Source of the DNA: Burkholderiales bacterium | GTDB lineage: Bacteria > Pseudomonadota > Gammaproteobacteria > Burkholderiales > JAEUOS01 | Direction: 5' to 3' | NCBI GenBank assembly: GCA_031362865.1 | Contig: JANLTH010000107.1 | Coordinates: forward strand, 33,033 to 65,032 | DNA length: 32,000 nt | Shown: positions 8,461 to 28,565 of the stretch, one piece after another | How the letters are laid out: every line of letters begins with the position of its first letter | Numbering within the stretch: the stretch's first letter is position 1 | Position numbers and translations under genes: made by a program | Notes under the pieces: model-generated | What the model was told of the DNA's origin: nothing | What the model saw: only the letters and a program-made list of their open reading frames with translations | The model's database searches: none

Positions 8461-8474
8461 TCAGGGATTCTATT

Positions 8475-9416
8475 TTGCTTGAGCTCTCGCCCCGGTCACT
8501 CGTCATCGCTTCACGTGAAAGCCGCCTTGCTTTGTGGCAAGCCGAGTTTGTCAAAGCCAAGCTCGAAGCGCTCTACCCGCAATGCCAAGTGAGCATTTTG
8601 GGCATGACGACGCAAGGCGACCAGATTTTGGATAGAACCTTGTCCAAGATCGGCGGCAAAGGCCTTTTTGTTAAAGAGTTGGAAGCGGCGCTTGCCGATG
8701 GCCAGGCCCACCTCGCGGTGCATTCGTGCAAAGACGTGCCGGTGTTGATGGACCCGCAATTCGCGCTACCGGTGATTCTGCGCCGTGAGGACCCGCGCGA
8801 CGCTTGGGTTTCGAGCCGTTATGCCGGCCCGGCTGAGATGCCTGCCGGGGCCGTCGTGGGCACCTCCAGCTTGCGTCGTGAAGCGCAGTTGCGGTCGCGC
8901 TTTGCGCACCTCAAGGTCTTGCCCCTTCGCGGAAATCTCGATACGCGGTTGCGCAAGCTCGACGAAGGTCAATACGATGCCATTGTGCTGGCGGCAGCCG
9001 GGTTGAAGCGCTTGGGCGCGGCTGACCGCATTCGCGCGATGCTGCCGCCAGCAGAATCTTTGCCCGCCGTAGGGCAGGGCGCGCTTGCGATTGAAATTCT
9101 CAGCCGTCGCGACGACGTGGCAGCGTGGCTGATGCCGCTGTCGGATCGTGATACCGCCACTTGTATCACGGCTGAGCGTACCGTGAGCCGTGCGTTGGGT
9201 GGCAGTTGCCAAGTGCCTCTGGCAGCTTACGCCGTGCCCGAAGGCAACACCTTGCGCCTGCGGGCGCTGGTGGCAGCCCCAGACGGCAGCCAAGTGCTGC
9301 GCGCTGAGCGTACCGGGCCGATTGGCATGCCAGAAGAACTTGGCCTTGCCGTGGCCGCGGACCTGCGCCGCGATGGCGCGGATCGCATTTTGGCCGCCGT
9401 TGCGGCTGTGCCTTGA
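8475..9416 (+). CDS. hemC: Hydroxymethylbilane synthase (porphobilinogen deaminase)
   Basis: [22 protein letters not shown] and the cofactor cysteine context [12 protein letters not shown]. The only in-frame start before the conserved N-terminus is TTG 8475. Confidence 0.93.
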
Positions 9417-9429
9417 GCCGACGACGGCG

Positions 9430-10197
9430 ATGATTATTCTCACGCGCCCGCAGGCAGACGCGGCGCAAACGGCGGTTCGCTTGGGGCAAGCTGGATTTGC
9501 GTGCACCGCGCTGCCCTTGCTCGAAGTGGGCGCGCTCACCGACCCCGGCGAGCAAACATTGCTGCACCAGGTGCTGGCGCGGCTTGCGGCGTTTGCTGGC
9601 ATCATTTTTGTGAGCCCCAACGCGGTGCGCCTCGGGCTTGCCGACTTGGCCCAGTGGCCTGCTAACACCACGGCCTATGCGGTGGGCGAGGGCACGGCTG
9701 CGACGTTGCGCGCGCGTGGTATCGCTGCCATTACGGCTGATGGCGCAGGTGGCAGCGAAGCGCTGTACCAGCGCATGCGGGCCGATTCGCTGTTTGGCAA
9801 ACACTTTTTGCTCCTGCGTGGGCCAGACGGGCGCGCCTGGCTTGCTGATTCACTACGCGGCGCTGGTACAAGCGTGACCTTGCTCAAGTGCTACGAGCGC
9901 CGCGCCGCCGCGCCCACTGCCTCGCAGTGGCAAGCGCTTTGGGTGGCGCAGCCGACGGGTTGGTCACTCACCAGCTCAGAGGCGGTGCGCCACTTGGGTG
10001 CGCTGCTGGCTGGGTTACCCGCGACCGAGAGCACGAAGCTATCGTGCCTTCCCGCCTGGGTGTCGCACCCGCGCATCGCCACTGCTGCCCGCGCGGCAGG
10101 CTTTACCGACATTCGCTTGACGCAGCCGGGCGATCAAGGTCTGATTGACGCTTTGCGTGCCGCTGCTGCTGGCCTCGCCGATTCTTCCTCCCCATGA
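9430..10197 (+). CDS. hemD: Uroporphyrinogen-III synthase
   Basis: Lies immediately after hemC. The N-terminus MIILTRP... is typical of HemD, and length (~255 aa) and operon context fit. The ORF-track start at 9190 would overlap hemC by 227 nt, so ATG 9430 is preferred. Confidence 0.8.
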   Translation: MIILTRPQADAAQTAVRLGQAGFACTALPLLEVGALTDPGEQTLLHQVLARLAAFAGIIFVSPNAVRLGLADLAQWPANTTAYAVGEGTAATLRARGIAAITADGAGGSEALYQRMRADSLFGKHFLLLRGPDGRAWLADSLRGAGTSVTLLKCYERRAAAPTASQWQALWVAQPTGWSLTSSEAVRHLGALLAGLPATESTKLSCLPAWVSHPRIATAARAAGFTDIRLTQPGDQGLIDALRAAAAGLADSSSP

Positions 10198-11327
10198 CCG
10201 CCTCAGCTTCTGACCCGGCTTCTGACTCAGCTACCGCTGCCGCAACTGCACCTGCTGCGCTAGCGCAGCAGGTGGTGGCCCGCGCCCCTTCGGGGGCGGC
10301 ACGGCTTGGACTGCAGGGTTGTATCATCATTGTGCGGGCCCTGCTGCTCGATTTGCACTGGGCCAGCACACAACGCGATATCCGTAATCTGCAACGGCAG
10401 TTGGCCGAGCGCCTGCGCAGTGGTGATGCGATCAATAGCGAGGCACGCATGTTGGCTCGCGAAGCGCAGGAGCGGGTGCGCGAGGCCACCACCAAGCTGG
10501 CCCTGCTCGAGGCCAAGCTGACCGAGTCGCAAAGCCAGCAAGCGGCGCTCGAACAGCTCTATCAGTCGCTGGCGCGCAACCGTGACGAGTGGGCGCTCTC
10601 TGAAATCGAACAGGTGCTTACCGTCGCTTCGCAGCAGCTGCAACTTGCCGGCAACGTACCGGGCGCGGTGATCGCGCTGCAAAACGCCGATTCCAGGCTC
10701 GCACGCGGCGACCGCGCCCAGTTCATCGCGGTGCGCAAGGCATTGCAAATGGACTTGGAGCGCCTGAAAGCCTTGCCCTACGTCGATGTGCCGGGGATGG
10801 CATTGAAACTGGACGCAATGATTCTCGCGGTTGACAGCTTGCCCTTGATCTTTGACGAACGCTTAGGCGCAGGCGAAGCGCTGGGCACGCCCACCGGCGA
10901 GAAGGGCGGCGCTGACGAAAAAACCTGGCTGGGCAAACTGTTTGGCGAAACCTGGAGCGAGATGAAGCAACTCATTCGGGTGCGCGACATGTCCGGCTCT
11001 GAGCCGGTGGTTTTGCCGCCCACGCAAACCTTCTTCCTGCGGGAAAATCTCAAGCTGCGTTTGCTCAACGCCCGCATCGCGCTGATGCAGCGCAACGAAA
11101 CGGCGTTTCGTGCCGATCTGCTGGCCGCGCAAAACTGGCTGGGCAAGCATTACGACCTGCGCGCCAAATCCACGGTGAATGCGGTGGCGGTACTCAAAGG
11201 GCTTTCGGCCAGCGCACTCGCCATTGAGTTACCGACCTTGGCGGACAGCCTGAACGCGGTGCGCAATTTTCGCGCCGCCCGCGAAGTGGCTCCGGGCGCC
11301 GGGTCCGCCACTGCGCCGCGCCGCTAG
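10194..11327 (+). CDS. hemX: HemX-family protein (often annotated uroporphyrinogen-III C-methyltransferase)
   Basis: ATGA overlap with the hemD stop. It has an N-terminal membrane segment followed by a long coiled-coil region, as in HemX, and sits in the conserved hemCDXY position. Confidence 0.7.
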   Translation: MTASASDPASDSATAAATAPAALAQQVVARAPSGAARLGLQGCIIIVRALLLDLHWASTQRDIRNLQRQLAERLRSGDAINSEARMLAREAQERVREATTKLALLEAKLTESQSQQAALEQLYQSLARNRDEWALSEIEQVLTVASQQLQLAGNVPGAVIALQNADSRLARGDRAQFIAVRKALQMDLERLKALPYVDVPGMALKLDAMILAVDSLPLIFDERLGAGEALGTPTGEKGGADEKTWLGKLFGETWSEMKQLIRVRDMSGSEPVVLPPTQTFFLRENLKLRLLNARIALMQRNETAFRADLLAAQNWLGKHYDLRAKSTVNAVAVLKGLSASALAIELPTLADSLNAVRNFRAAREVAPGAGSATAPRR

Positions 11328-11341
11328 CGCGCCCCTTCGCC

Positions 11342-11761
11342 ATGCGTGGGCTCTTTTGGATTCTCGGTCTTTTTGCGGTAGCGGTCGGCCTCTCGCTGGT
11401 CGCGCGCTACAACGAGGGTTACGTGCTGTTCTTTTATCCGCCGTATCGGATCGAGCTGTCGCTGACTCTGTTTGTTTTGGTGTTGTTGGTGCTGCTCATG
11501 CTGCTTTACGGCATCGGGCACTTGTTCCATTTGCTGATTAATTTCCCTGACCGCGTGCGCGCCTATCGTGCCGCCCAAAGCCGCAAGCAGGGTAAGGCCG
11601 CGTTTGCCGCCGCCGTGATTGCGCAGGTAGAAGGGCGCTTCGAGGACGCGAAGCGCGAAGCGGAAGCAGCGCTCGCCGCCGGGGAGCAAGTTGAATTGGC
11701 AACACGGATTCGGGATGCTGTGTCCATTTCGCAGTCCGGTCAGGCCCCGAGCCCGACTTAG
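11342..11761 (+). CDS. hemY: HemY N-terminal domain protein; appears truncated (139 aa versus the ~400 aa expected)
   Basis: Two N-terminal TM helices and the start of the helical region (RVRAYRAAQSRKQGKAAFAAAVIAQVEGRFEDAKREAEAAL) match the HemY_N architecture. No TPR-rich C-terminal part follows, and the next gene starts 33 nt later. Confidence 0.6.
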   Translation: MRGLFWILGLFAVAVGLSLVARYNEGYVLFFYPPYRIELSLTLFVLVLLVLLMLLYGIGHLFHLLINFPDRVRAYRAAQSRKQGKAAFAAAVIAQVEGRFEDAKREAEAALAAGEQVELATRIRDAVSISQSGQAPSPT

Positions 11762-11793
11762 CTTCGTCTTGCGTCATTCCGAAAAGGTTTCCC

Positions 11794-12699
11794 ATGCCCG
11801 CCGCCGAATCCATCGACTTGGTCCGCATTCAATTCAATCCGGCTGGCTTGCTGGTCTTGAATGCGGTGCTGGCGCTACTCATGTTTGGCATTGCGCTCGA
11901 AGTGCGCTTGGCCGACTTCAAGGCCTTGCTCAAGCGCCCACGCGCGTTTGTGGTGGCGCTCAGTTGCCAATATCTGCTCATGCCGCTCCTGGCATTGGGC
12001 GTGATTGCGCTGCTGCAGCCGCCGCCGTCAGTGGCTTTGGGGATGATTCTGGTGGCGGCCTGCCCGTCGGGCAATCTCTCCAATTATTTGACCCATATCG
12101 CGCACGGCAATACGGCTCTTTCGGTGGGCATCACCTCGCTCTCGACCATTGCCGCGATCATTCTCACCCCAACCATGCTGGGCTTTTTCGGCAGCCTCTC
12201 GCCAACTACCGCACCTTTGATTCAGTCCATCGTGGTGGACCCGTGGCGGATGGCGTTTGACGTCGGTTTGGTGATTGGCGTGCCCCTGGCGGTGGGCATG
12301 CTGGTGGCACTACGCAAACCTGACTTTGCGGCGCGTTATGCCAAGCGGATTCAAATGAGCGCCTTCGTTTTGCTGATCGCCTTTGTGGTGATCGGCTCGC
12401 TAGGCAATTTCGCCACCTATCAAAAGTACCTTTGGCTGGTCTTCTGGATTGTGCTCTTGGGCGATGTGCTGGCCTTCACGCTCGCCTATTCGCTCGGCTG
12501 GGCGACACGCTTGCCTGAAACTGATCGCCGCGCGCTGGCGTTTGAAACCGGCAAGCGCAATACCGGCTTGGGGCTGGTGCTGGTGTTCGGGTTTTTTGAT
12601 GGGCTAGGTGGCATGGCGCTGGTGGCGGCTTGGTGGGGCACCTGGGACATTGTGATGGGCACGGCGCTGGCCCATTGGTGGAAAAAGCGGCCCTTGTAG
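11794..12699 (+). CDS. Bile acid:sodium symporter (BASS/SBF) family transporter
   Basis: 301-aa polytopic membrane protein with an SBF-like core (LVAACPSGNLSNYLTHIAHGNTALSV). Confidence 0.8.
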   Translation: MPAAESIDLVRIQFNPAGLLVLNAVLALLMFGIALEVRLADFKALLKRPRAFVVALSCQYLLMPLLALGVIALLQPPPSVALGMILVAACPSGNLSNYLTHIAHGNTALSVGITSLSTIAAIILTPTMLGFFGSLSPTTAPLIQSIVVDPWRMAFDVGLVIGVPLAVGMLVALRKPDFAARYAKRIQMSAFVLLIAFVVIGSLGNFATYQKYLWLVFWIVLLGDVLAFTLAYSLGWATRLPETDRRALAFETGKRNTGLGLVLVFGFFDGLGGMALVAAWWGTWDIVMGTALAHWWKKRPL

Positions 12700-12818
12700 C
12701 TGGCCTGCATCTGCGCCGCGGCAGACTGCGTACACTATAGACACCCCGCGCCTGACCGTAGCAGTCGAGTGCGGCCGTGACCTTCACAACCTGTCATCCG
12801 CCCGGGAGAGCCACCGCC

Positions 12819-13820
12819 ATGAAATACCCTTTGTTATCCGCCGTCACACTCAGCCTTGCAGCAAGTTTTCTGCCCACACTGGCGCATGCGCAAGCCTCGC
12901 CACCAGAGGCGCAGGTCAACGCGCTGGAAGGATTGTTTGGCAAGCAGCCGTCGTTCCGGCGCTCGCACGCCGCAGGTCTTTGCGCCAGCGGGCATTTCAT
13001 TGGGAATGCGGAGGGTCGAGCGCTCTCCAGCGCCACGGTATTTGGTGGTGACAAGGTTCCGGTGGTTGCGCGGTTCTCGCTGGGCGGCGGTAATCCCAAA
13101 GCTTCCGACAAAAGCAGATCTGCGCGCGGCCTTGCGCTTCAGTTCAGCGCGCCGAATAGCGAAACCTGGCTGATGGCCAACATCTCAACGCCGATGTTTT
13201 TTGTGAGCAAGCCGGAGCAATTCGCTCCGTTTTTGCAGGCGCGTTCGGCTGACCCAGCTACTGGAAAACCAGATCCGGAAAAACTCAAGGCCTTTAATGC
13301 GGCCAACCCAGAGACCATGTTGCAAGGCGCGTACTTGGCCAAGGCGCCAATACCAGCGAGCTATGCCGGAGTCAACTACTGGGGCATCAACGCATTCGAA
13401 TTTGTCAATGCAAAAAACGAGAGCCGCTTCGTCCGGTGGCAGTTCTCGCCGGCGGCGGGCGAGCTGGGCTTGTCGGACGAGCAGTTGAAGACCATGCCAG
13501 ACACTTTTCTCGCTGATGAGCTGCGCAAGCGAGTGGCGGCAGCGCCAGTGTCGTTTGACTTCAAAGTACAACTGGCGGAGAAAGACGATCAACTCACCGA
13601 CCCTACCAAGGTCTGGCCCGACAGTCGTAAAGTGATTACTGTCGGCAGGCTGGTTATCGACAAGGTAGAGCCTGGTGTCGAGACCGCCTGTGTCGGCATC
13701 ACCTTTAACCCGCTGGTCTTGCCAAAGGGAATCAAACCATCGTCCGATCCGGTATTGATGGCGCGCCCGACACCCTATGCGATCTCGTTGGGTCGCCGGC
13801 TGACGGAAACCGCCAAGTAG
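12819..13820 (+). CDS. Secreted catalase-related haem protein (small catalase-family peroxidase)
   Basis: Signal peptide MKYPLLSAVTLSLAASFLPTLAHAQA and a catalase-core-like distal region (FRRSHAAGLCASGHF). A proximal Tyr context is present (RPTPYAISLGRR). GGGAGAG Shine-Dalgarno precedes ATG 12819; the ORF-track start 12777 is less likely. Confidence 0.75.
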   Translation: MKYPLLSAVTLSLAASFLPTLAHAQASPPEAQVNALEGLFGKQPSFRRSHAAGLCASGHFIGNAEGRALSSATVFGGDKVPVVARFSLGGGNPKASDKSRSARGLALQFSAPNSETWLMANISTPMFFVSKPEQFAPFLQARSADPATGKPDPEKLKAFNAANPETMLQGAYLAKAPIPASYAGVNYWGINAFEFVNAKNESRFVRWQFSPAAGELGLSDEQLKTMPDTFLADELRKRVAAAPVSFDFKVQLAEKDDQLTDPTKVWPDSRKVITVGRLVIDKVEPGVETACVGITFNPLVLPKGIKPSSDPVLMARPTPYAISLGRRLTETAK

Positions 13821-13848
13821 GGCACGCGATTGGTGCTATCGATTGCCT

Positions 13849-13875
13849 GAAGAAGCCCGTCCATTGGGCTTCTTC
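13849..13875. terminator. Bidirectional stem-loop between convergent genes
   Basis: GAAGAAGCCC-gtccatt-GGGCTTCTTC, a 10-bp perfect stem. It lies between the catalase-like stop (13820) and the acyl-CoA synthetase stop (13887). Confidence 0.6.
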
Positions 13876-13886
13876 GGGCATTTCTC

Positions 13887-15458
13887 TCAGACTTTTCGAG
13901 TCTGCCCGACCCAGTAAGTGTCGCGCAGTTTGCGCTTGAAAATTTTGCCGCTGTCTTCGCGCGGCAAGTGGGCGCGCAACTCAACTTTGCGCGGCACTTT
14001 GTAGCCGGCGATCCGTGCTGCAAGCCAGGTGCGAATCGCTTCGGGCGACAATGCTGTCCCCTCGCGCAGTTGTACGCACGCGAGCAAAGATTCACCCATT
14101 TCAGCATCTGGAATGCCGAACACGGCGCAGTCAGCCACGCCGGGCATGCCGATCAGCACGGCCTCAATTTCGGCCGGGTAAATATTGACCCCACCCGAAA
14201 TCACCATGTCGCTCTTGCGGTCGGTGATGAAGAGGTAGCCTTCGGCATCGAGATAGCCCATGTCGCCCACGCACAGCAGCTCGCCACTTTTCAACTTGCT
14301 CGTGGCATCCGGGTTGTTGAGATATTCGACCCGGCCATAGGCGGGCTGGCAGCACCAAATCGTGCCGACCTCACCCGTGGGCAGCACTAAGCCTGCATCG
14401 TCGCGGATTTCAATCACGGCATCGCCCACGGCGCGCCCGGCGCTGCCTGGTTTGCGCGCGGCTTCAGCCGAAGAAATTTTGGTGATGTAGCCCGACTCTG
14501 AAGAGGCATAGCCTTCATTGACGATGGGCCCCATCCACTCGACCATTGCGCGCTTGACTTCAGGCGCGCACGGGCTGCCGGTAGAGCCGATGTAGCGCAA
14601 GCTGCTGGTTTCGTAGCGCGTTTTAACCTCTGCCGCCAAGCCCAGCATGCGCACCATCATGGTGGGCACGAGGTAGGCGTGGGTTAAGCGGTGCTCTGCG
14701 ATCAGCGCCAGCGTGCGCTCGGCATCAAAGCGCGGCTCGAGCACCATCAGCGCATCAGCCTGCTGCATCACCAGTGCACCGTAGCCATTGGGGGCGCTGT
14801 GGTAGAGCGGCGCGGAAAGCAGGCAGCGCATACCCGGCTCAATGCCCAACACGGTGGACGTAATCAACATCGCGCGTTGCGCGGCGGCTGCGGCGTCTTC
14901 AGGGGCGAAAGGCACGCGACGCACGCCCTTGGGCCGCCCGGTGGTGCCCGAGGTGTAAGGCATCATGCCGCGCGCCGGTTGGGGGCTGCCGGTGTGAGGT
15001 GGCTGGGCTGCGAGCCAACTGGGCCAATCGTGCCAATCGTGTCGTAGAGGCATGCCTGAAGAAGCAATCTGGGCGCTCGTTTCCACGGCATCCAGCCGGA
15101 AAGCCTTGACGGTGGCGGCGCTTGGCGGTACGACAATAACAGTCATGCCTTCAGGGATGCCGTCGCGGATTTGCGCCACCAACTCCGCGCCCACAAACAA
15201 CACTTTGGCTGCGCAATCCCGCAAGATGTAGCCTGCTTCGTCGGCCTTGAAGTGCCAGTTCATCGGCACGAAGTAAGCCCCCAGCGGGCGCGAGCCCAGC
15301 ATGATTTCAAGCCACGCGGGCTCGTTGCGCAGCATGACGGCGACCACGTCATTTGCGCCGACACCGAGCGCTGTGAGGCCGCCGCCCACGCGGGCGATGC
15401 GACTCTCGAATTGCGCCGGGCTAATGGTCTGCGTGCCGTGCAGCAAGGTTGCGGTCAT
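13887..15458 (-). CDS. AMP-dependent synthetase/ligase (acyl-CoA synthetase family)
   Basis: AMP-binding signature YTSGTTGRPKGV plus GDMGYLDAEGYLFITDRKSDMVISGGVNIYPAEIE. The start overlaps the upstream gene's stop (ATGA). Confidence 0.9.
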   Translation of the reverse strand: MTATLLHGTQTISPAQFESRIARVGGGLTALGVGANDVVAVMLRNEPAWLEIMLGSRPLGAYFVPMNWHFKADEAGYILRDCAAKVLFVGAELVAQIRDGIPEGMTVIVVPPSAATVKAFRLDAVETSAQIASSGMPLRHDWHDWPSWLAAQPPHTGSPQPARGMMPYTSGTTGRPKGVRRVPFAPEDAAAAAQRAMLITSTVLGIEPGMRCLLSAPLYHSAPNGYGALVMQQADALMVLEPRFDAERTLALIAEHRLTHAYLVPTMMVRMLGLAAEVKTRYETSSLRYIGSTGSPCAPEVKRAMVEWMGPIVNEGYASSESGYITKISSAEAARKPGSAGRAVGDAVIEIRDDAGLVLPTGEVGTIWCCQPAYGRVEYLNNPDATSKLKSGELLCVGDMGYLDAEGYLFITDRKSDMVISGGVNIYPAEIEAVLIGMPGVADCAVFGIPDAEMGESLLACVQLREGTALSPEAIRTWLAARIAGYKVPRKVELRAHLPREDSGKIFKRKLRDTYWVGQTRKV

Positions 15459-17077
15459 GCGACGATCCCATCTGCTGCCACGGCATCGGCCCAGGGTTGG
15501 GCCGCTTCGCTGGCACCGTGGTTGATGCCAGCGAAGCGCATGACGCCAGAAGGGCAGGCAAAACGCAGCGGCATGTGTTGCCGACGCGCCGCCACATAAT
15601 CGAATGACGAGGCAAGCCGGGCTTGGGTTTCGGCAGGCAGGTTAGTGTCGCCGATCAAGATTTTTCCCTCTGAAGCGTCGATGCGAGACGTGTGAAATGC
15701 GCGATCCAAATCCATGCCATAGTCCACGATGAATGAAGTCAGCTGCGCCACCGCTGGCAGGATGCGCCTGCCGCCGGAAGCGCCCAGGCCAAAACGCCGC
15801 CCACTTTGCTCACCCAAAATCGGCGTGTAGTTGGTCAAGCAACGTTTGCCGGGTGCTAGTGAATTAGGCTGACCTGGCTCAGGGTCGAACCACATGATGC
15901 CGTTGTTCATCAGTACGCCTGACGTGGGCAGCACATAGCGCGAGCCGAAGATGGAGAGCAGCGTTTGCGTATTCGAGACCATGTTGCCGTGGCGATCCAC
16001 CACGCAAAAATGGGTAGTGCATTGTGGGGCGCGTTCGTCTTTGAGGGGCGCAGCGCCAAGCGTGCGTGCGCCATCAACATCGCCCATCTCGCTTAAGCGT
16101 GCGGCGTAGGCTTCCTGGAGGGCCCGCCCGTAGGCGGCATAGGCGGCGGCATCAGGTGCATCGCCCCGCTGTGGGTTATCGGGCTGCCAAGCGCTCAACT
16201 GCCGCAACGTGTGCGCGAGCGTGGGGCCAGCGGTCAGTTCAGGTGTGGCGAAAATCTGCGCATCACGATACGCAATAACCAGCGGCTCGCGCACCACGGC
16301 GCGGTAGGCGCTCAAATCAGCAACGCTTAAAAATCCGCCGCCCTCCCGCATGTCTTGCGCCAGCACCTGCGCCAGATCGCCGCGATAAAAATCGTCTGCG
16401 CCCCGAGTGGCAACTTGCGCGATTGAATCGGCCAGCGCCCCCAGCGGTACGCGCACCACCGTCTTCACGCCCCAAGCGGCCGTCGGCACTTCGCCGCCTG
16501 GCAGGTAGACCGAGGCGCTGTGCGGGTAGCGCCGCAAATCCGGTGCCCCGGCGGCGATGTTTTCGGTGGTGAACCAATCGACCAGCACGCCTTCTTTTGC
16601 GGCTTGAATGGCCGGTTGCAACAGCTCAGTCCACGGCTTGCTGCCATAGCGCCGATGGAGTTCGCCCATGCCCGCCACCACGCCCGGTACGGCGATTGAC
16701 TTAGGCCCGTGTACATTGCAATCGCCCGCCACCCGTGGCCAGGGGAACAGATCGCCCGATGGCCCGGTGCCCGCGAGCGGGTACGCATCTACTCGCAGCG
16801 AGTCGGGTGCGCGCATGCCATAGTCGATCACTTCGTAGCGCGCCTCACGAGCGCGATACAGCACCATCGCCCCGCCACCGCCCATGCCGCTCATCCAGGG
16901 CTCGAGCGCACCCAGTGCGAACGACACCGCCACGGCTGCATCGGCGGCATCGCCACCGTCGGCCAGCACGGCGGCCCCAATTTCGGCGGCGCGCCGGTGC
17001 TGTGCGGCAACGATGCCATGGGGCGATGAAATTGCGGGTTTGCGCAGCACCTGCGAGGTGCTGAAATTGGTTTGCAT
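15455..17077 (-). CDS. ggt: Gamma-glutamyltransferase family Ntn-hydrolase, apparently without signal peptide
   Basis: GGT family motifs include the nucleophile context QCTTHFCVVDRHGNMVSNTQTLLSIFGS. ATG 17077 is preceded by GGGAGA with 7-nt spacing. The N-terminus MQTNFSTSQVLRKPAISSPHG is not signal-like. Confidence 0.85.
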   Translation of the reverse strand: MQTNFSTSQVLRKPAISSPHGIVAAQHRRAAEIGAAVLADGGDAADAAVAVSFALGALEPWMSGMGGGGAMVLYRAREARYEVIDYGMRAPDSLRVDAYPLAGTGPSGDLFPWPRVAGDCNVHGPKSIAVPGVVAGMGELHRRYGSKPWTELLQPAIQAAKEGVLVDWFTTENIAAGAPDLRRYPHSASVYLPGGEVPTAAWGVKTVVRVPLGALADSIAQVATRGADDFYRGDLAQVLAQDMREGGGFLSVADLSAYRAVVREPLVIAYRDAQIFATPELTAGPTLAHTLRQLSAWQPDNPQRGDAPDAAAYAAYGRALQEAYAARLSEMGDVDGARTLGAAPLKDERAPQCTTHFCVVDRHGNMVSNTQTLLSIFGSRYVLPTSGVLMNNGIMWFDPEPGQPNSLAPGKRCLTNYTPILGEQSGRRFGLGASGGRRILPAVAQLTSFIVDYGMDLDRAFHTSRIDASEGKILIGDTNLPAETQARLASSFDYVAARRQHMPLRFACPSGVMRFAGINHGASEAAQPWADAVAADGIVA

Positions 17078-17198
17078 TGCTTGATCTCCCACAGTGAATG
17101 GCCTTGCAGGATTATCGTGGATGCCACCGTGGCCCGGCGTGCAAATGCGAATGGGCGCTGATGCATCGCGCCCATTCGCCACCACTATCTATGCCGGG

Positions 17199-17828
17199 TT
17201 ACGCCTTCACGGTCGGGTCTTCACGGCGGCGCAATCCAAACACCGCCGCGATCGCCGTTTCCAAGCCGCTCCACACCTTCAAGCGGTCCAGCACCGGATT
17301 CACCAATCCGGTCACTGCGCAGTAGTGGGTATTTTTGCGACCCATGTGGTGCTTGGCATGATGGCGCGGGCTTTGCAGCAGCTTGGTCTTTTGCAACCAG
17401 GTCACCACACGCCCATTTTCACTTGGATTCTGATGCGCCCACTTGTGAATTTGGTTGGCATTGACCGCGACAATCACGAACAGCCATACCTGCCAAGTGA
17501 GCATATCGAGGCCCCATGCGGCGGCCAAAATCACTAGGCCGATCAAGAACAAATCCCACGAACTCTCCCACCAACTGCGCGCAACAAAAGCGCGTGGTTT
17601 GACGTGATGTTCAAGATTGGCCTCACCGATCAGCTTGCCGATGATGGGCGTGTCTTTGCGCGCATAAGCATCTTCTGCCCAATGGATCGCGCCAGACATC
17701 AGGTCGGCAATCACCACCGTTGCAGCCACTTGCATCATGGGTATCATCAAGTTCATCGCCCGCCGGAAATCGTGCTCTGGGAGCGCAGTGCAATGCGCCC
17801 GACACGAGTTTTCCTCTCCCTTTTTCAT
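17199..17828 (-). CDS. CarF/TMEM189-like membrane lipid desaturase family protein (PF10520-like)
   Basis: Small polytopic membrane protein with histidine clusters: IHWAEDAY, EHHVKP, QIHKWAH, RHHAKHH. An alternative start at ATG 17756 (MNLMIP...) is possible. Confidence 0.6.
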   Translation of the reverse strand: MKKGEENSCRAHCTALPEHDFRRAMNLMIPMMQVAATVVIADLMSGAIHWAEDAYARKDTPIIGKLIGEANLEHHVKPRAFVARSWWESSWDLFLIGLVILAAAWGLDMLTWQVWLFVIVAVNANQIHKWAHQNPSENGRVVTWLQKTKLLQSPRHHAKHHMGRKNTHYCAVTGLVNPVLDRLKVWSGLETAIAAVFGLRRREDPTVKA

Positions 17829-17982
17829 GCACGCAGGAAATACTGCGCATGGAGAAAAGTCTGATCTGGCGGTACGTTTTGTGCAAGACTCTGTCGATAG
17901 GTATCGCTAAAAGCTACCGTCGGCGTATTTTCTAGATCAAGCGCCGGTCAGCATCTTGGCAGAAACCGTATCAAGGTTAATC

Positions 17983-18017
17983 AAAAATTGGGCCGAATGG
18001 GAATTTTGGCGGGCCAA
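17983..18017 (-). terminator. Probable intrinsic terminator of tRNA-Thr
   Basis: On the minus strand, directly 3' of the tRNA: TTGGCCCG-N14-CGGCCCAA (8-bp stem, one central mismatch) followed by TTTTT. Confidence 0.45.
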
Positions 18018-18021
18018 GAAT

Positions 18022-18097
18022 TGGTGCCCGTGGACGGAATCGAACCGCCGACCTCTCGCTTACGAAGCGACTGCTCTACCAACTGAGCTACACGGGC
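18022..18097 (-). tRNA. tRNA-Thr (anticodon CGT)
   Basis: The reverse complement folds as a cloverleaf. Acceptor stem is GCCCGTG/CACGGGC, D-arm AGCTCAGTTGGTAGAGC, anticodon loop TTCGTAA, T-arm GGCGGTTCGATTCCGTC, and the encoded 3' end is ACCA. Confidence 0.93.
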
Positions 18098-18210
18098 CGT
18101 GTTGACATGCTGCGCACGCATTTGCTTGCGGACTTGTTCCTTAAGCGTGCAAGCGTGCGGCAAGCCCGTTATTATAGACAATCCAGCCGTAATTTTCTAA
18201 TAGGTGCACC

Positions 18211-19023
18211 ATGATGTTTCGCTCTTGGCAGATTTGCGCCACTCGTTTTTTAATGGCATTCAGCGCAATTATGTTGGGCAGCTTGGCGCTGGCACAAGAC
18301 TTCGAGCGCGAAGCGCGCTGGCGTGCTGAAATTGAGCCGACCGTCGTCGTGGGCGACCCAGTGCTGCTCAAGCATTCCGTGCGAATGGCCGCGCCCGATT
18401 TTTTTGCGATTTACACCGAGGCCAAGGGGCCACCAAAGGCCGGGTTGGTGCTGCTGCACGGGGCAGGCGTACACCCGGATTTCGGCATGATTGGCGCGCT
18501 GCGGATCTCGCTCGCCGAGGTCGGCTACGCCACGCTTTCGGTACAAATGCCGGTGCAAGGCAAAGATGCCAAAGCGGAAGACTATCACCCCAAAGTATTC
18601 CCGAATGCGCTCGACCGGATCGCCCGCGCCGCGATCTACATGCAAGGCCGTGGGCATCGCAAACTGGTGTTGGTCAGCCACAGCATGGGCGCGTGGATGG
18701 CCAATGAATATCTGGATGCCAACCCGACCAATCTCTACGGCGCATGGATTTGCATCGGCATTACCGGTGGCTTCTCCAGCGATCTGGTAGGCAGCCTGCT
18801 CAAAGGCCGCGCGCTACCGGTTTTCGATGTTTACGGGCAGCGCGATTTTGAGGTGACCATGAGCGCCGCCGGGCGACGCTTTCGCGCCATCAAAGACACC
18901 GGCGGCTCGCGTCAAATTCAGGTGCCGGGGGCCGATCACTACTTCGCTGGCAAGGAGCGTGAACTATCAACGGTGCTTGCCACGTGGCTAGGCGAGATTG
19001 CACCCAGTCTGCGGGGGCAGTAA
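18211..19023 (+). CDS. Secreted alpha/beta-fold hydrolase
   Basis: Signal peptide (MMFRSWQICATRFLMAFSAIMLGSLALAQD), an HG oxyanion-type motif (LLHGAG) and a nucleophile elbow (VSHSMGA). Confidence 0.7.
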   Translation: MMFRSWQICATRFLMAFSAIMLGSLALAQDFEREARWRAEIEPTVVVGDPVLLKHSVRMAAPDFFAIYTEAKGPPKAGLVLLHGAGVHPDFGMIGALRISLAEVGYATLSVQMPVQGKDAKAEDYHPKVFPNALDRIARAAIYMQGRGHRKLVLVSHSMGAWMANEYLDANPTNLYGAWICIGITGGFSSDLVGSLLKGRALPVFDVYGQRDFEVTMSAAGRRFRAIKDTGGSRQIQVPGADHYFAGKERELSTVLATWLGEIAPSLRGQ

Positions 19024-19049
19024 TGGGCGATGATCGCGGCATCAGGCTG

Positions 19050-19520
19050 CTATAATCTTGGGCTTCGCTTTCGCAGCGATAGACGACCGAACACCGGAGA
19101 GGTGGCAGAGTGGTCGAATGTACCTGACTCGAAATCAGGCGATGCGGTAACGTATCCGAGGGTTCGAATCCCTCCCTCTCCGCCAGTAGCCTTACGCTGG
19201 GAAGCGTAGCCCTCACTGGGCATCATCATCAAAAAGCTGGCCGCTAGTGCCAGTAGCACCGTCGCCGCCAACTGGCCTGCGTGGGCGGCGCGCTCTTTTG
19301 GGCTTTCGGTCTCGATCTTCCAAATCCATTCAAGCGTTTCGGCTGGTCCCATGTTGGCGATTCTGGCCAGCTTGATGACCTCTACCGGGTTAAGGGCTTT
19401 GATGCCCTTTTTCATTTCACTTATCCGCGCGGGCATGCAGCCAAGCGACTTAGCACATTGATAGTCAGTCGTCAATCCGTGATTTCGCATCTTGAGGATT
19501 AGTTCGTAGCTGCTATTCAT
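19050..19520 (-). CDS. Phage HTH (Cro/CI-type) regulator, putative repressor; the ORF tail runs through attL and the tRNA-Ser gene
   Basis: The N-terminal ~65 aa look like a helix-turn-helix (TDYQCAKSLGCMPARISEMKKGIKALNPVEVIKLARIA), followed by a hydrophobic segment (LAATVLLALAASFLMMM). AAGGA Shine-Dalgarno lies 8 nt before ATG 19520. Residues after ~111 are encoded by the att core and host DNA, so the true functional end is uncertain. Confidence 0.6.
   Translation of the reverse strand: MNSSYELILKMRNHGLTTDYQCAKSLGCMPARISEMKKGIKALNPVEVIKLARIANMGPAETLEWIWKIETESPKERAAHAGQLAATVLLALAASFLMMMPSEGYASQRKATGGEGGIRTLGYVTASPDFESGTFDHSATSPVFGRLSLRKRSPRL
19096..19185 (+). tRNA. tRNA-Ser (anticodon CGA, reads UCG), long variable arm
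   Basis: Acceptor stem GGAGAGG/CCTCTCC, anticodon stem-loop CCTGA-CTCGAAA-TCAGG, long variable arm, T-arm GAGGGTTCGAATCCCTC, 3' GCCA. A perfect TATAAT lies at 19051-19056, about 40 nt upstream. Confidence 0.95.
19162..19185 (+). repeat. attL core: 24-bp direct repeat (3' end of tRNA-Ser)
   Basis: GTTCGAATCCCTCCCTCTCCGCCA is identical to 27481-27504. Confidence 0.9.
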
Positions 19521-19588
19521 TTGAGAATTCCTTTTCGGTATCTGTATTATTCGTGCTTATCGTTTAGTAAGTATTCGATTGAGCCGCG
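19521..19588. promoter_or_regulatory. AT-rich divergent promoter/operator region of the prophage (regulator leftward, replication operon rightward)
   Basis: This 68-nt gap is the most AT-rich stretch of the window. A candidate rightward promoter is TTGAGA (19521-19526) - 18 nt - TATTAT (19545-19550). T(T)AT(T)CG recurs three times (about 19548, 19557 and 19572). Confidence 0.4.
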
Positions 19589-19852
19589 ATGCCGCACTAT
19601 ACCTCCAAACCCTCGCCAACGTCACGCCCGGTCTACGCGATCTGGGTTCGGTACGCTGACGGCAAGGAAACGCTCTACCGGGGCGCGCTAGGCCAGACCT
19701 GGAGCGAGCAATGCCCCGAGTCCATCAAGCTGATGACGGCCCTAGCCAAGGCCGCCAATGTGCATTCAGTGCAGTGGCACCTCCTCGACCCTCGCGATGC
19801 CATGAGCGCCAAGCTACCGCCGAATTCCATCATTCAAGGAGTAACCGCCTGA
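19589..19852 (+). CDS. Phage hypothetical protein (87 aa), first gene of the rightward operon
   Basis: ORF whose TGA overlaps the ATG of the Rep gene (TGATG at 19850-19854). No recognisable motif. Confidence 0.5.
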   Translation: MPHYTSKPSPTSRPVYAIWVRYADGKETLYRGALGQTWSEQCPESIKLMTALAKAANVHSVQWHLLDPRDAMSAKLPPNSIIQGVTA

Positions 19853-21003
19853 TGAACGCACACCAGCAAACCAATGCGCGCCGGTTTATCGAACAACAAG
19901 GCAACGGCGAAGGCTTGCGCGCGCAGCGCGCAGCCGTAGCGGTTGCCGAAGCCGCTGCCGAAGGCGCGCAGCGTCCCCCTGCTCTAACAGGGGGGGAAAG
20001 TACCCCAAATCAAGCACTTAGCGAAAGCTGGAAAGCTCAAAACGTCATCGTTGACTGGTGCCAAGGCACGTTCAAGCGAATCCGGCCGGGAACCAACCCG
20101 ATAGCCATGATTCACCTCTGGTTTTGTCATTTCCTCATGTGCGATGTTCACGGCGAAGAACGGGGGAACGGCATGTGGGGCTACGAATCCCTCACCCACT
20201 TCTACGCCCACGTAGACGGAACCAGGATACTCGTCGGCCTAGCCATGACCGGCGGCGCAAAGACCAACGGAACCCATCTCTTTCAACTAAACGGGCACGG
20301 TTGCGCACTTGTCAAAGACTGGAACGAAGTTCAAAGAGTGCTTGAAGAGCACGATGCCAGCCTAACCCGCGTCGATCTAGCCATCGACACACTCGAAGGC
20401 GCATTTCGGGTAGAAGAAGCCGCAGATTGGTACGTAGACGGCGGGTTTACCCAAGGCGGGCGAAGGCCCAAGTACAAACAAGAAGGTGATTGGTTCCTCA
20501 ACCAAGGCAGCGGTAAAACCTTCTACGTCGGCCTACGCGAACACGGCAAACAAGCCCGCGTCTACGAGAAAGGCAAACAACTCAAAGACCGCTGGTCAAT
20601 GTGGAACCGCTTCGAAGTCGAAATCCACAACACCAACCGCGATATTCCCGCCGAAATCCTCACCAAGCGAACCGAGTATTTCGCAGGCATGTACCCCATT
20701 TGCGCCACACTGGTAGACACCGAACATGCTGAACGGATAGCCACCTTAAAAAAAGAAGGGGAGATCAGCCTTGCGCACCTTATGCACTGGAACAAAGTCG
20801 CATACGGACGTTTGATCTTCCAGCTAACCAGCGCTGGTCACACACCTGAAAGCATCATCCAAGACACGCAACGCGAGGGCGTGCCTAGGAGATTGTCCAA
20901 AGCCTCGCTATTAAAAATCCGCCAAGGCGGCTCCCAGAGGAGTATCAAAGATGAACAACATGACCCAAACCAACCAGCGCATGACCGGCCTGGGATTCTT
21001 TGA
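19852..21003 (+). CDS. Rolling-circle replication initiation protein (Rep_trans/RstA-like, gII analogue)
   Basis: Motifs typical of the Rep_trans family: TRVDLAIDT, ARVYEKGKQL (candidate catalytic Tyr) and RFEVEIH. It occupies the first large gene position of the rightward operon. The ORF-track start at 19711 overlaps the previous ORF, so the coupled ATG 19852 is preferred. Confidence 0.75.
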   Translation: MNAHQQTNARRFIEQQGNGEGLRAQRAAVAVAEAAAEGAQRPPALTGGESTPNQALSESWKAQNVIVDWCQGTFKRIRPGTNPIAMIHLWFCHFLMCDVHGEERGNGMWGYESLTHFYAHVDGTRILVGLAMTGGAKTNGTHLFQLNGHGCALVKDWNEVQRVLEEHDASLTRVDLAIDTLEGAFRVEEAADWYVDGGFTQGGRRPKYKQEGDWFLNQGSGKTFYVGLREHGKQARVYEKGKQLKDRWSMWNRFEVEIHNTNRDIPAEILTKRTEYFAGMYPICATLVDTEHAERIATLKKEGEISLAHLMHWNKVAYGRLIFQLTSAGHTPESIIQDTQREGVPRRLSKASLLKIRQGGSQRSIKDEQHDPNQPAHDRPGIL

Positions 21004-24163: not shown

Positions 24164-25228
24164 ATGATTCGCCTTATTACCGGGCTACCCGGAAACGGTA
24201 AAACCCTACGCGTAGTTTGGGAACTCTCGAAGATCGCCGAAAAAGGCGAACGCCCGATCTACGTCCACGGCATTCCGGATCTGGCCATCCCTGTCAATCA
24301 GCTAGAAGACCCAGAAAAATGGTATGAACACGAAGACCACGCGCTAATCGTCATCGACGAAGCGCAAAGTATCTTCAGGCCACGTGGTACCGGCAGCAAC
24401 GTACCGCCACATGTGGCCCGGCTAGAAAAACACCGTCACCAAGGCATCGACCTCTGGCTCATTACGCAGCATCCCATGCTGCTCGATACCAACGTCCGAC
24501 GACTAGTCGGCGAACACATTCACGTTCATCGACCTTTCGGATTTCAACGAGCAACCATTCTCAAATGGCAAGAAGTCAGCAACCCAAGTAGTAAATCGCA
24601 CATCGCGCAAGCGCAAAAAGAACAATGGTCATTCCCGCAAGATGCTTACAAGCTCTACAAAAGCGCCCAAGTCCACACGCATAAAGCGCAAATTCCGTGG
24701 AAGATGGTCATCCTCGCCATCGGCACGCTAGTTGCGGCAGTAGTCGCCATGGGCTACGCCTACTACCACTTCAGCAAGATGGCCAACGCAGGCAAGCCAT
24801 TGACCGAAGCCACAAAGGCCCAACCCAGTGCCCTCGGTGGCGGCCTCGCAGTCGTTGGAAATAGCGACAAAAAAAAGAGTCCTCAAGAAGATCTCAGAGA
24901 TTGGCTAGACGCCAGGAAGCCAAGAATCGAAGGATTGCCCGAGACTGCGCCGCAATACGACGACGTAATGAAACCGCAAGTCGCCCCGCAGCCCTCGGCT
25001 TGCATCAAAATGCGTGACGAATGCCGGTGCTACACCCACCAAGCCACATTGATCGACATGTCCAGAAATCTCTGCGAGCAAATCGTCAAGAAAGGTTATT
25101 TCGACGCCACGCTAGCTAGGGAAAATCGCAGCTCCACATCTGTGCAGGGGCAAAGCAACCGCGCGCCCACGCAACAAGTGCCAACCGTTACACTAGCGCT
25201 ACCTGATTTCAAGGAAACTAAACCATGA
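24164..25228 (+). CDS. Assembly ATPase pI (zonular occludens toxin, Zot family)
   Basis: N-terminal MIRLITGLPGNGKT (Walker A), ALIVIDEAQ (Walker B) and a central TM helix (MVILAIGTLVAAVVAMGYAYY) followed by a periplasmic tail. This is the classic pI/Zot architecture. Confidence 0.9.
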   Translation: MIRLITGLPGNGKTLRVVWELSKIAEKGERPIYVHGIPDLAIPVNQLEDPEKWYEHEDHALIVIDEAQSIFRPRGTGSNVPPHVARLEKHRHQGIDLWLITQHPMLLDTNVRRLVGEHIHVHRPFGFQRATILKWQEVSNPSSKSHIAQAQKEQWSFPQDAYKLYKSAQVHTHKAQIPWKMVILAIGTLVAAVVAMGYAYYHFSKMANAGKPLTEATKAQPSALGGGLAVVGNSDKKKSPQEDLRDWLDARKPRIEGLPETAPQYDDVMKPQVAPQPSACIKMRDECRCYTHQATLIDMSRNLCEQIVKKGYFDATLARENRSSTSVQGQSNRAPTQQVPTVTLALPDFKETKP

Positions 25229-26829: not shown

Positions 26830-27405
26830 TTACTCGAACAGGTCGCCCTTTGCCTTCGCTCTTTTCAAAGCTCGCTTCACTGAAGCAATGTGAATTCCGT
26901 ATCGCCGGGCTAATTCTGATTTGTTGAGCGAACCAGAGACAAACAGGGTGACCAGCTCCAGCTCCTGCTCTTCCGTGATGGCTGGCAATCGACCGAACGC
27001 CACGCCACGCAATCGAGCTGCGCCCATTCCTGCAACCGTTCGCTCCACGATCATTGACCGCTCAAACTCTGCGAACGCACCGAGAATCTGGAACACCACA
27101 CGCCCCGCAGCCGATTTCGTATCCAGATGCTCGGTAAGCGACTCCAGACGTGCACCAGTTTCGTGAATGCGCTCCGTCACGCGCAGCAAGTCCGCCAGCG
27201 AGCGGGCTACACGATCGAGCTTGTAAACGACTACCGTGTCACCCGGTTTGATCTTGGCCAGCAAAGCAATCAGCTCTGGCCTTTTCAGCGACTTACCGCT
27301 TTTTTGCTCCTGAAAAAGAAAATCGACGCCGGATTTCTCCAAAGCGTCGATCTGCAAACCGGTGTTTTGTTCGATGGTGCTTACGCGAGCATAGCCGTAG
27401 CGCAT
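26830..27405 (-). CDS. Small serine recombinase (resolvase/invertase family), putative prophage integrase
   Basis: MRYGYARVSTIEQNTGLQIDAL carries the catalytic Ser context, and VYKLDRVARSLADL is also present. A C-terminal HTH is present (LNKSELARRYGIHIASVKRALKR). 191 aa from ATG 27405, whose 5' end lies 75 nt from the attR core. Confidence 0.9.
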   Translation of the reverse strand: MRYGYARVSTIEQNTGLQIDALEKSGVDFLFQEQKSGKSLKRPELIALLAKIKPGDTVVVYKLDRVARSLADLLRVTERIHETGARLESLTEHLDTKSAAGRVVFQILGAFAEFERSMIVERTVAGMGAARLRGVAFGRLPAITEEQELELVTLFVSGSLNKSELARRYGIHIASVKRALKRAKAKGDLFE

Positions 27406-27480
27406 GATGGTTTCCTGTAAAGGAGTTGAAGGGACTCCTTCAGTAACCGAAACCATGCAAAGCGGCGCGGATCACGAAGA

Positions 27481-27504
27481 GTTCGAATCCCTCCCTCTCC
27501 GCCA
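27481..27504 (+). repeat. attR core: 24-bp direct repeat
   Basis: GTTCGAATCCCTCCCTCTCCGCCA is identical to 19162-19185. Similarity breaks down immediately upstream of the repeat. Confidence 0.9.
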
Positions 27505-27545
27505 AATACCTTTGTACAGGCGCGGGACTCGCAAAACTCTTGCGT

Positions 27546-27555
27546 CCCCCCCCCC
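27546..27555 (+). repeat. Homopolymeric C10 tract
   Basis: Read directly (tgcgt cccccccccc ttgcc). It lies 41 nt downstream of attR in host DNA, just after an imperfect hairpin GGGAC(tc)GCAA-aactc-TTGCGTCCC. Confidence 0.85.
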
Positions 27556-27788
27556 TTGCCAACTGCCTGCGGCCCCCTGCGCGCCCTGACATCACCTCCG
27601 CGCGCGGCTTCCACCGCGACCGCTTCGTGTCGCCGGTTCCTTTTCAATTGCGCTTCGTCCTCCGGCCGCCAGCCAACTCGCCGATTCCGGGCGCTTCAAC
27701 TTCGACATGTTGCCGAAAAGGCATTGCGAGCTCGGATTGCAAGATAATCTGGGAGATCGCAGCTCACAACTTATCGAATTTCAATCTC

Positions 27789-28565
27789 ATGAGTGTCAAA
27801 CAACTCTTCGACCTTTCCAATCGGGTCGCCATCATTACCGGTGGGTCGCGCGGCTTGGGGCTGCAAATGGCGGAAGCCTTGGGTGAATTGGGTGCCAAGC
27901 TGGTCTTGAGCGCGCGCAAAGCCAACGAGCTTGAAGAGGCTCATGCCCAGCTGACCAAGCTTGGTTACGACGTGATGACCATCCCGGCCGACATTGGCAA
28001 GGTCGAGGCGATTCAACCTTTGGTCGATGCGGTGATGGCGCGCCATGGGCGCATTGATATTCTGGTCAACAACGCTGGTGCTACCTGGGGCGCGAATGCT
28101 GAGGATCATTCGCTCGACGCGTGGAATAAGCTGATCGCGGTCAACCTTACCGGGGCCTTTTTGCTCTCTCAAGCAGTGGGGCGCGCCTCGATGATTCCGA
28201 ATCGTTACGGGCGCATCATCAATATCGCCTCGGTCGCAGGGCTGGGCGCTTCGCCGCCGCAAATGGGTGGCACGCTGGCCTACAACACCACCAAAGGCGG
28301 CTTGGTCAATTTCACTCGCCAATTGGCTGCCGAGTGGGGCCGCTACAACATCACGGTGAATGCGATTTGCCCCGGCTTTTTCCCTTCGCGCATGACCCGC
28401 TCGACGCTCGCTGCGCATGAGAAGTTTTTTGTCGATCTCACGCCGATGGGCAAATTGGGTGGCAACGAAGATTTGAAGGGCGCAGTGGCGTTGTTCGCGT
28501 CGAACGCGGGCGGTCACATCACCGGTCAAACGCTGGCGGTCGATGGCGGGGCGATTGTCGTATGA
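27789..28565 (+). CDS. Short-chain dehydrogenase/reductase (gluconate 5-dehydrogenase-like SDR)
   Basis: TGGSRGLG cofactor motif, NNAG and catalytic YNTTK. ATG 27789 (MSVKQLFDL...) is preferred over the upstream-extended ORF-track start 27540. Confidence 0.88.
   Translation: MSVKQLFDLSNRVAIITGGSRGLGLQMAEALGELGAKLVLSARKANELEEAHAQLTKLGYDVMTIPADIGKVEAIQPLVDAVMARHGRIDILVNNAGATWGANAEDHSLDAWNKLIAVNLTGAFLLSQAVGRASMIPNRYGRIINIASVAGLGASPPQMGGTLAYNTTKGGLVNFTRQLAAEWGRYNITVNAICPGFFPSRMTRSTLAAHEKFFVDLTPMGKLGGNEDLKGAVALFASNAGGHITGQTLAVDGGAIVV

Follow-up and report, generated by a model that had tools for sequence, protein, structure and literature searches.

A putative phage regulator gene with two alternative 3' ends reads through a tRNA-Ser attachment core toward a serine recombinase gene

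The placement of an attachment site (attP) within the open reading frame (ORF) of a phage regulator, with an altered C terminus after integration, has already been published for versions that use dif sites and XerCD, namely phiRSS0 and XacF1. Here we describe the same principle in a phiRSM-like filamentous prophage contained in a 32,000-nt stretch of DNA from a Burkholderiales bacterium (contig JANLTH010000107.1; the whole stretch is hereafter called the window, and positions are those of the window unless another record is named), in which the ORF of a putative helix-turn-helix (HTH) regulator passes through an attachment core that is the 3' end of a tRNA-Ser gene and, in the reconstructed phage circle, runs on into the gene of a small serine recombinase. 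What makes a filamentous phage integrate silently or replicate chronically is poorly understood; the layout in phiRSS0 and XacF1 has been noted, and ORF12 of the latter affects prophage stability. In phiRSS0, a dif-like attP lies inside ORF13, whose product drops from 156 to 130 aa upon integration (Yamada 2013, PMC3816273), and the ORF13 product was proposed to have differing functions before and after integration (PMC3816273). In XacF1, attP lies inside the coding region of ORF12, which is split by integration (Ahmad 2017, PMC5666396), and a 5' deletion of ORF12 led to delayed integration and unstable prophages (PMC5666396).

Two further systems bear on the locus. The attP of phiRSM is the 3' end of tRNA-Ser(UCG) (PMC4471427, PMC3816273), and phiRSM1 and phiRSM3 carry an ORF15-attP-ORF14 module (Askora 2009/2011, as cited in PMC4471427 and PMC3816273), with recombinases of this type carrying out both integration and excision (Askora 2011, as cited in PMC4471427). 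In the integration-dependent immunity of the mycobacteriophage BPs and its relatives, transcription from PRep passes through the repressor gene rep, inside which attP lies, into int, so that the bidirectional integrase is encoded on the same transcript (Broussard and Hatfull 2013, PMC3694055; PMC4557955). The viral form of the BPs repressor carries a proven degradation tag that is removed by integration, the prophage form being shorter (PMC3694055), and recombinases of the BPs type act in both directions without a directionality factor, their expression level setting stability (PMC3694055; PMC4557955).

The segment 19186–27504 of the window is a phiRSM-like filamentous prophage of about 8.3 kb, inserted into the 3' end of a tRNA-Ser(CGA) gene via a small serine recombinase. 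The last 24 nt of the tRNA gene are repeated exactly at 27481–27504 (27 nt if one mismatch is allowed), an inovirus gene set sits between the two core copies, and the recombinase is 58% identical to ORF14 of the Ralstonia phages phiRSM1 and phiRSM3 (tblastn). We call the element phiRSM-like because of these inovirus genes, this recombinase similarity and the fact that the phiRSM attP is also a tRNA-Ser 3' end. The features on which the argument turns are as follows.

19096–19185, plus strand: host tRNA-Ser(CGA) gene, the integration target, intact at attL (ARAGORN)
19162–19185: attL copy of the 24-nt core (tRNA 3' end), forming regulator codons 112–119 on the minus strand
27481–27504: attR copy of the 24-nt core
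19050–19520, minus strand: regulator ORF in its prophage form, 156 aa, with the last 36 residues antisense to the tRNA plus 46 nt past it
27381–27480, minus strand: regulator-tail codons used only in the episome (32 aa), with a final 25 nt that overlap the recombinase ORF in another frame
26830–27405, minus strand: small serine recombinase of the resolvase/invertase type (Pfam PF00239, Resolvase, E = 6e-39; tblastn)
27381–27647, minus strand: stop-free frame across attR, its upstream half being host DNA
19711–21003, plus strand: replication initiator (Rep_trans), divergent from the regulator (Pfam PF02486, E = 8e-27)
24164–25228: Zot-like assembly ATPase

The original prediction placed the att core inside the minus-strand HTH ORF, and the core indeed supplies codons that are read as GGEGGIRT. 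This ORF, which runs from 19520 to 19050 and has a good ribosome-binding site as read from the sequence, contains no stop ahead of the core and continues onward antisense through the tRNA. When the circular junction was rebuilt by script (19520–19162 joined to 27480 downward), a 152-aa ORF resulted with its stop at 27383–27381, and the tail was identical to the one that had been assembled by hand in the prediction, including the stop at 27381 and the 25-nt overlap with the recombinase. The stop lies 25 nt inside the recombinase ORF if the recombinase starts at ATG 27405, which on sequence grounds is most likely its start; translation from this codon gives the N terminus MRYGYARV, as in phiRSM3 ORF14, and the Pfam Resolvase domain begins there. 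The episome order that had been proposed, with regulator, attP and recombinase co-oriented and overlapping, is found in the rebuilt circle, and the junction recurs in a relative (P0002, below) and in attP-like form in another (L018, below). Also as anticipated, the episomal tail gives way on integration to one encoded antisense to tRNA-Ser, and the phage DNA that stays upstream of the recombinase amounts to exactly 75 nt (27406–27480). The regulator gene is read here as having two alternative 3' ends, encoding proteins of 152 aa in the episome and 156 aa in the prophage. The ORF that crosses attR from 27647 to 27381 was correctly predicted to read the core in the same frame as the regulator ORF (both frame offsets are 2); it had no Pfam match, and it is the regulator-tail frame prolonged into host DNA, a by-product and no gene. 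The coordinates and sequence observations of the original prediction proved correct throughout. All three reading frames of the core lack stops, and the open frame alone is no better than chance. It is recurrence in relatives that lifts the layout above chance, because the window, P0002, P0003 and L018, at 29–76% identity, share the position and the frame of an antisense tRNA-Ser core.

These relatives came from an exhaustive HMMER search seeded with the closest of them, P0002, which gave 22 representatives, and from genome scans. Statements on P0002–P0022 rest on protein sequence, the DNA examples being the window and L018, and the circle form is represented by one protein, P0002. This metagenomic protein, from an independent sequencing run, has 171 aa and is 76% identical to the window regulator over residues 1–120. 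It crosses the same core and then continues for 51 more residues, the last ~20 of which match the translated attR-side phage DNA of the window (E = 5e-8); by its sequence, P0002 is the protein that a sister phage encodes in its circular (attP) form. In P0003 (39% identical), a tRNA-type core has the same position and frame, and the end of the protein resembles that of the L018 prophage form.

A genome scan with the recombinase led to L018, a Burkholderiaceae metagenome-assembled genome (JAVKLS010000013.1) whose recombinase is 56% identical to that of the window. The L018 regulator, 29% identical to the window regulator, lies ~9.4 kb downstream of the recombinase on the same strand and continues into tRNA-Ser(GCT) antisense sequence in the frame seen in the window. 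At the other end of the element, the last 21 nt of the regulator, the core and the recombinase leader form an attP-type junction, and through this attP-like junction the regulator is 160 aa long with its stop 28 nt before the recombinase ATG. The element itself (9700–19912 of that contig, ~10 kb) is not an inovirus, its ORFs matching a major head protein family, a terminase/packaging ATPase and an endolysin. A 140-nt fragment of a second recombinase gene just outside its left junction suggests an older, deleted tandem copy. Judged by these sequences, the regulator, the att core in its ORF and the recombinase constitute a conserved portable cassette that is found in at least two unrelated elements.

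A family-level genome search for the regulator returned the window's own copy alone, and an order-level search (401 genomes) gave five further matches, four of them distant family members and the fifth probably nothing but tRNA-Ser antisense. Close relatives of the regulator were not found in viral contigs (query P0002) or in genome and metagenome contigs (profile queries). A tblastn search of the whole regulator ORF against phage records matched the tRNA-antisense part alone, and P0003 had no match in phage records. The Ralstonia "YO" prophage records stop at the element ends and fall outside the regulator-end comparison.

The part of the regulator that is shared by its family ends shortly before the core.

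19200–19520, minus strand: family-conserved regulator part (residues 1–107), comprising an XRE-type HTH, a hydrophobic helix and a P-x-x-A-x-A motif

The window regulator matches phrog_638 (E = 2e-12) and phrog_4441 (E = 1e-8) in PHROGs. A Pfam search with this protein gave no match, while 16 of the 22 family members match HTH_3 and most relatives match HTH_3, DUF3693 or Phage_CI_repr. With hhalign, the regulator family aligns to phiRSS0 ORF13 (99% probability, E = 3e-18) and, in the HTH region, to XacF1 ORF12 (98%, 89 aligned columns), and it shares only the HTH part with phiRSM3 ORF15. On these alignments the window regulator is a member of the phiRSS0 ORF13/XacF1 ORF12 family. AlphaFold predicts a five-helix HTH domain over residues 1–72 (predicted local distance difference test, pLDDT, above 90 for residues 1–70), followed by a long helix, 74–98, whose C-terminal part belongs to a hydrophobic stretch at 84–102. 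The P-x-x-A-x-A motif occupies residues 101–107 (19200–19220), and alignment conservation ends there, five codons before the core, with nothing conserved after it. The hydrophobic stretch, the proline and the small-x-small motif also occur in ORF13, in phiSHP2 ORF150, which is built like the window regulator, and in the 22 representatives; XacF1 ORF12 has the hydrophobic stretch without a clear small-x-small motif. The P-x-x-A-x-A motif resembles a signal-peptide cleavage region, though it lies ~100 residues into the protein and the basic residues after it argue against export. The HTH part of the family is also present in Burkholderia phage ST79 (KC462197.1, 35077–35328) and in phiE12-2 gp24, from genomes of ~35 kb, and in ST79 no more than about 100 nt separate the match from the end of its record.

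Codons resembling dif follow the motif at a distance of 10–20 residues in phiRSS0 ORF13, phiSHP2 ORF150, XacF1 ORF12 and L012, and short peptides that look like translated dif occupy the same place in most of the 22 representatives, as read from the protein tails without DNA. The sequences thus read place the att site of the family typically within the last codons of the ORF, the equivalent in the window being the tRNA 3' end read antisense. The window departs from the dif/XerCD trait of the family in that a tRNA-Ser 3' end forms its core and the phage brings a serine recombinase.

Comparison of the window with phiRSS0 shows a regulator of the same family and architecture (HTH, hydrophobic helix, P-x-x-A-x-A), in reverse orientation and with attP in its last codons; the window regulator adjoins the replication gene. 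However, phiRSS0 has a dif-like attP, uses host XerCD, has no recombinase gene downstream and truncates its protein on integration, whereas the window has a tRNA-Ser end as its site, exchanges one tail for another and lets the ORF enter the phage serine recombinase gene. XacF1 ORF12, like Cf's "primary immunity determinant", belongs to the same family and has att codons in the ORF, but XacF1 depends on XerCD and dif and lacks a phage recombinase.

With phiRSM1 and phiRSM3 the window shares the small serine recombinase, a tRNA-Ser attP in which 12 of the 13 published core bases are present, and a circle order of regulator, attP and recombinase, all co-oriented. The orientation of the core relative to the regulator and recombinase genes is inverted between the window and phiRSM1/3 (compared at L002 8473–8485 and L014 7269–7972), and the identity block here takes in the palindromic TTCGAA of the T-loop. 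In phiRSM-type prophages, the recombinase lies ~50 nt downstream of an intact tRNA-Ser in the same orientation, so that it could be reached by read-through from the tRNA; the window regulator converges on the tRNA and would be transcribed antisense to it. The window hence combines an ORF13-type regulator with an att site and recombinase of the phiRSM type. What is new is this att type (tRNA-Ser plus small serine recombinase) together with a constant core frame and a cassette found in two virus types. In proteins and att type the window matches no published case; the principle is a published one.

In its organization the locus parallels BPs. As in BPs, attP lies in the regulator ORF, the viral and prophage forms have different C termini, the recombinase is downstream and co-oriented, and the regulator is flanked by a divergent promoter on the replication side, which in the window is a promoter-like site. 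Unlike BPs, a tailed actinobacteriophage with a tyrosine integrase and a gp33-like repressor, the window has a serine recombinase (PF00239) and an XRE-type regulator, unrelated proteins, and its prophage form is about as long as its episomal form. Integration also alters what joins a phage gene across att in the sib retroregulation of lambda int and in intP/intX of Mx8, with consequences for expression or for the C terminus of the protein, but those cases act on the integrase transcript or protein and not on a regulator.

The RNA between the core and the recombinase gene is predicted to be structured.

27401–27459, minus strand: predicted leader stem-loop that pairs the recombinase AUG, with, by our reading, a 7-bp inner hairpin at ~27421–27441 (RNAfold)

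In the RNAfold model the recombinase AUG has an unpaired probability of 0.05, and the fold of the 125-nt RNA spanning core to recombinase start is more stable than those of its shuffles (z = -2.05). This model suggests that ribosomes completing the regulator tail would cross the leader stem, giving translational coupling in the circle only, a hypothesis for the window phage alone. No sigma-70-like promoter was found in 27300–27900, which covers the leader and the host flank, although a simple consensus scan is weak evidence. A sequestered recombinase AUG was also considered as a conserved feature and was dropped, holding in the window and failing in L018 (0.38) and phiRSM3 (0.95).

The tails that follow the att codons have a common composition. 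All 13 post-att tails are net basic, with 77 Lys and Arg versus 14 Asp and Glu in 393 residues. Eight of their nine Trp residues are followed by a hydrophobic residue, a count reached by 0.0002 of shuffles for a motif that was chosen post hoc. The helical hydrophobic moment is 0.74 for the window episomal tail versus 0.24 for the prophage tail; AlphaFold places two helices in the P0002 tail (pLDDT 60–70) and leaves the window prophage tail unstructured, with a mean pLDDT of about 45–50 over residues 111–140. In these models the episome-form tail is basic and amphipathic, and the prophage tail is unrelated to it and predicted to be unstructured. The C-terminal ends, Leu-Ala in the episomal form and Pro-Ala in P0002, are both set by overlapping recombinase codons.

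In dif-type members, the ORFs either stop at the TAA of a dif arm (L012 1845–1865, P0014, P0022) or continue via AAA with a basic tail (phiRSS0, L013 6750–6780; P0021). The former are probably prophage forms, and those reading AAA free-phage forms. The phiRSS0 attP has AAA where the host dif repeat (PMC3816273) has TAA, which keeps the frame open for 26 more codons in the free phage only, and P0021 is alike. As the sequences read, one attP base decides whether a tail is produced in dif-type members.

Collectively, these observations can be assembled into a switch. In the circle, the regulator promoter would transcribe across attP into the recombinase gene, and ribosomes finishing the regulator tail would pass the leader stem that pairs the recombinase AUG, so that recombinase would be made together with the regulator. 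Recombination at the core would remove the episome-specific tail and leave the recombinase behind a 75-nt leader without a recognisable promoter. Such a shut-off of the recombinase would stabilise the prophage because phiRSM-type recombinases catalyse both integration and excision, and excision would restore the tail and the coupling. We put the chance that the locus follows this logic of integration-dependent immunity, built from unrelated proteins, at about even. Its analogy to BPs, phiRSS0 and XacF1 makes the functional half plausible, and it is about evenly balanced against neutral read-through. Rather unlikely, in our estimation, is the wider proposal that an ORF13-type regulator, a fixed-frame tRNA-Ser core and a serine recombinase form a portable cassette that acts as integration-dependent immunity in Proteobacteria and has moved between unrelated virus types (the inovirus and L018), with a circle-only Trp-Leu amphipathic tail that is functional as a degron, an oligomerisation element or a membrane helix, with translation of that tail coupled to recombinase synthesis, and with both switched off at integration.

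Several observations weigh against a functional switch, and a number of them favour a rival reading, in which the functional regulator would end at about residue 107 and attP would be packed against the gene end in a compact cassette, the tail being neutral and translated up to a chance stop, and the recombinase using weak signals of its own in both states. This tolerated read-through is a real, though in our judgment a minority, possibility. The original prediction had raised the prospect that homologues end before about residue 110. As ORFs they do not, no early stop, that is none ahead of the att-like codons, being present in the 22 representatives or in ORF13, ORF150 and ORF12; as conserved sequences they do, conservation stopping at the P-x-x-A-x-A motif at ~107. 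Past the core the family tails are not conserved in sequence and vary in length from 9 to about 60 residues, and the tails of the window and P0002 share no sequence until their last ~20 residues. That shared stretch is also constrained as the recombinase leader and first codons, which can account for its conservation; where the window and P0002 differ in it, the changes are silent for the recombinase (both give MRYGYARV, as inferred from the protein), yet alter the tail. By our own reading of the tails, dif-type members read the att-like codons in differing frames and orientations. In some dif-type members the ORF ends at the dif-arm TAA; if these are the integrated form, they have, as we read them, a truncated regulator and no swapped tail. 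The chance of open frames is not small, 32 stop-free codons at about 60% GC being expected roughly once in three cases by our estimate. The helical-moment test is mixed, with 4 of 12 post-att tails, the window's included, in the top 5% of shuffles and several no better than shuffles. Pairing of the recombinase AUG is weaker in L018 (unpaired 0.38) and absent in phiRSM3 (0.95). Finally, phiRSM1 and phiRSM3 share the gene order, have a proven recombinase and manage with a regulator that stops ~40 nt before attP (ORF15 of phiRSM3 ends at 8524, its attP spanning 8473–8485) and that is unaltered by integration (PMC3816273). Neutral read-through in turn sits less well with the absence of any family member that stops ahead of the att codons, with the single frame that tRNA-type members hold through the core across 29–76% identity, with tails that are uniformly basic and in which the Trp-hydrophobic pair recurs, and with the base change from host TAA to AAA in the phiRSS0 attP and its counterpart in P0021.

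The tail might alternatively be removed by processing, with the hydrophobic helix serving as a membrane anchor and P-x-x-A-x-A as a signal-peptidase-like site, so that circle and prophage would end up with an identical mature regulator. The hydrophobic stretch (Kyte-Doolittle 19-residue maxima of 1.1–2.0), the proline and the small-x-small motif are indeed found in nearly all family members, but the hydrophobicity is borderline for a membrane span. Moreover, basic segments disfavour export under the positive-inside rule, and the residues after the motif and the tails are strongly basic; we consider processing improbable. A last reading, in which repeat and ORF continuity arose by coincidence and no phage integrated site-specifically, is refuted. 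A complete set of inovirus genes lies between the exact 24-nt repeats, the recombinase among them shares 58% identity with the phiRSM Int, the phiRSM attP is the same tRNA-Ser end (PMC4471427), and the junction is seen independently in P0002.

The cassette puts a phage recombinase directly behind a split regulator, which makes transcription, translation and the tail comparable across two defined states of the DNA. Should the switch be real, integration-dependent immunity, so far a topic of actinobacteriophages, would extend to Gram-negative hosts, serine recombinases and inoviruses, and it would explain how stable lysogens arise from a bidirectional recombinase that has no known directionality factor. 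If the tails are neutral, the locus would show how far a regulator C terminus can stay unconstrained beside an att site.

The region upstream of the regulator contains candidate control signals.

19521–19710: control region separating regulator and replication module and containing two promoter-like sites (consensus scan only)
19521–19550, plus strand: promoter-like site facing the replication genes (consensus scan)
19625–19596, minus strand: promoter-like site ahead of the regulator (consensus scan)

A search for operator-like repeats in 19500–19720 found none. Within the regulator ORF, ~50 nt before the core, the minus strand carries a weak terminator-like hairpin (5-bp stem) with a T-run at 19253–19237, which, if active, would give transcripts that end ahead of any stop codon. 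Past attR, the host DNA at 27505–27560 contains a hairpin followed by a run of ten C, probably where the tRNA-Ser transcription unit ended before the prophage split it from the tRNA.

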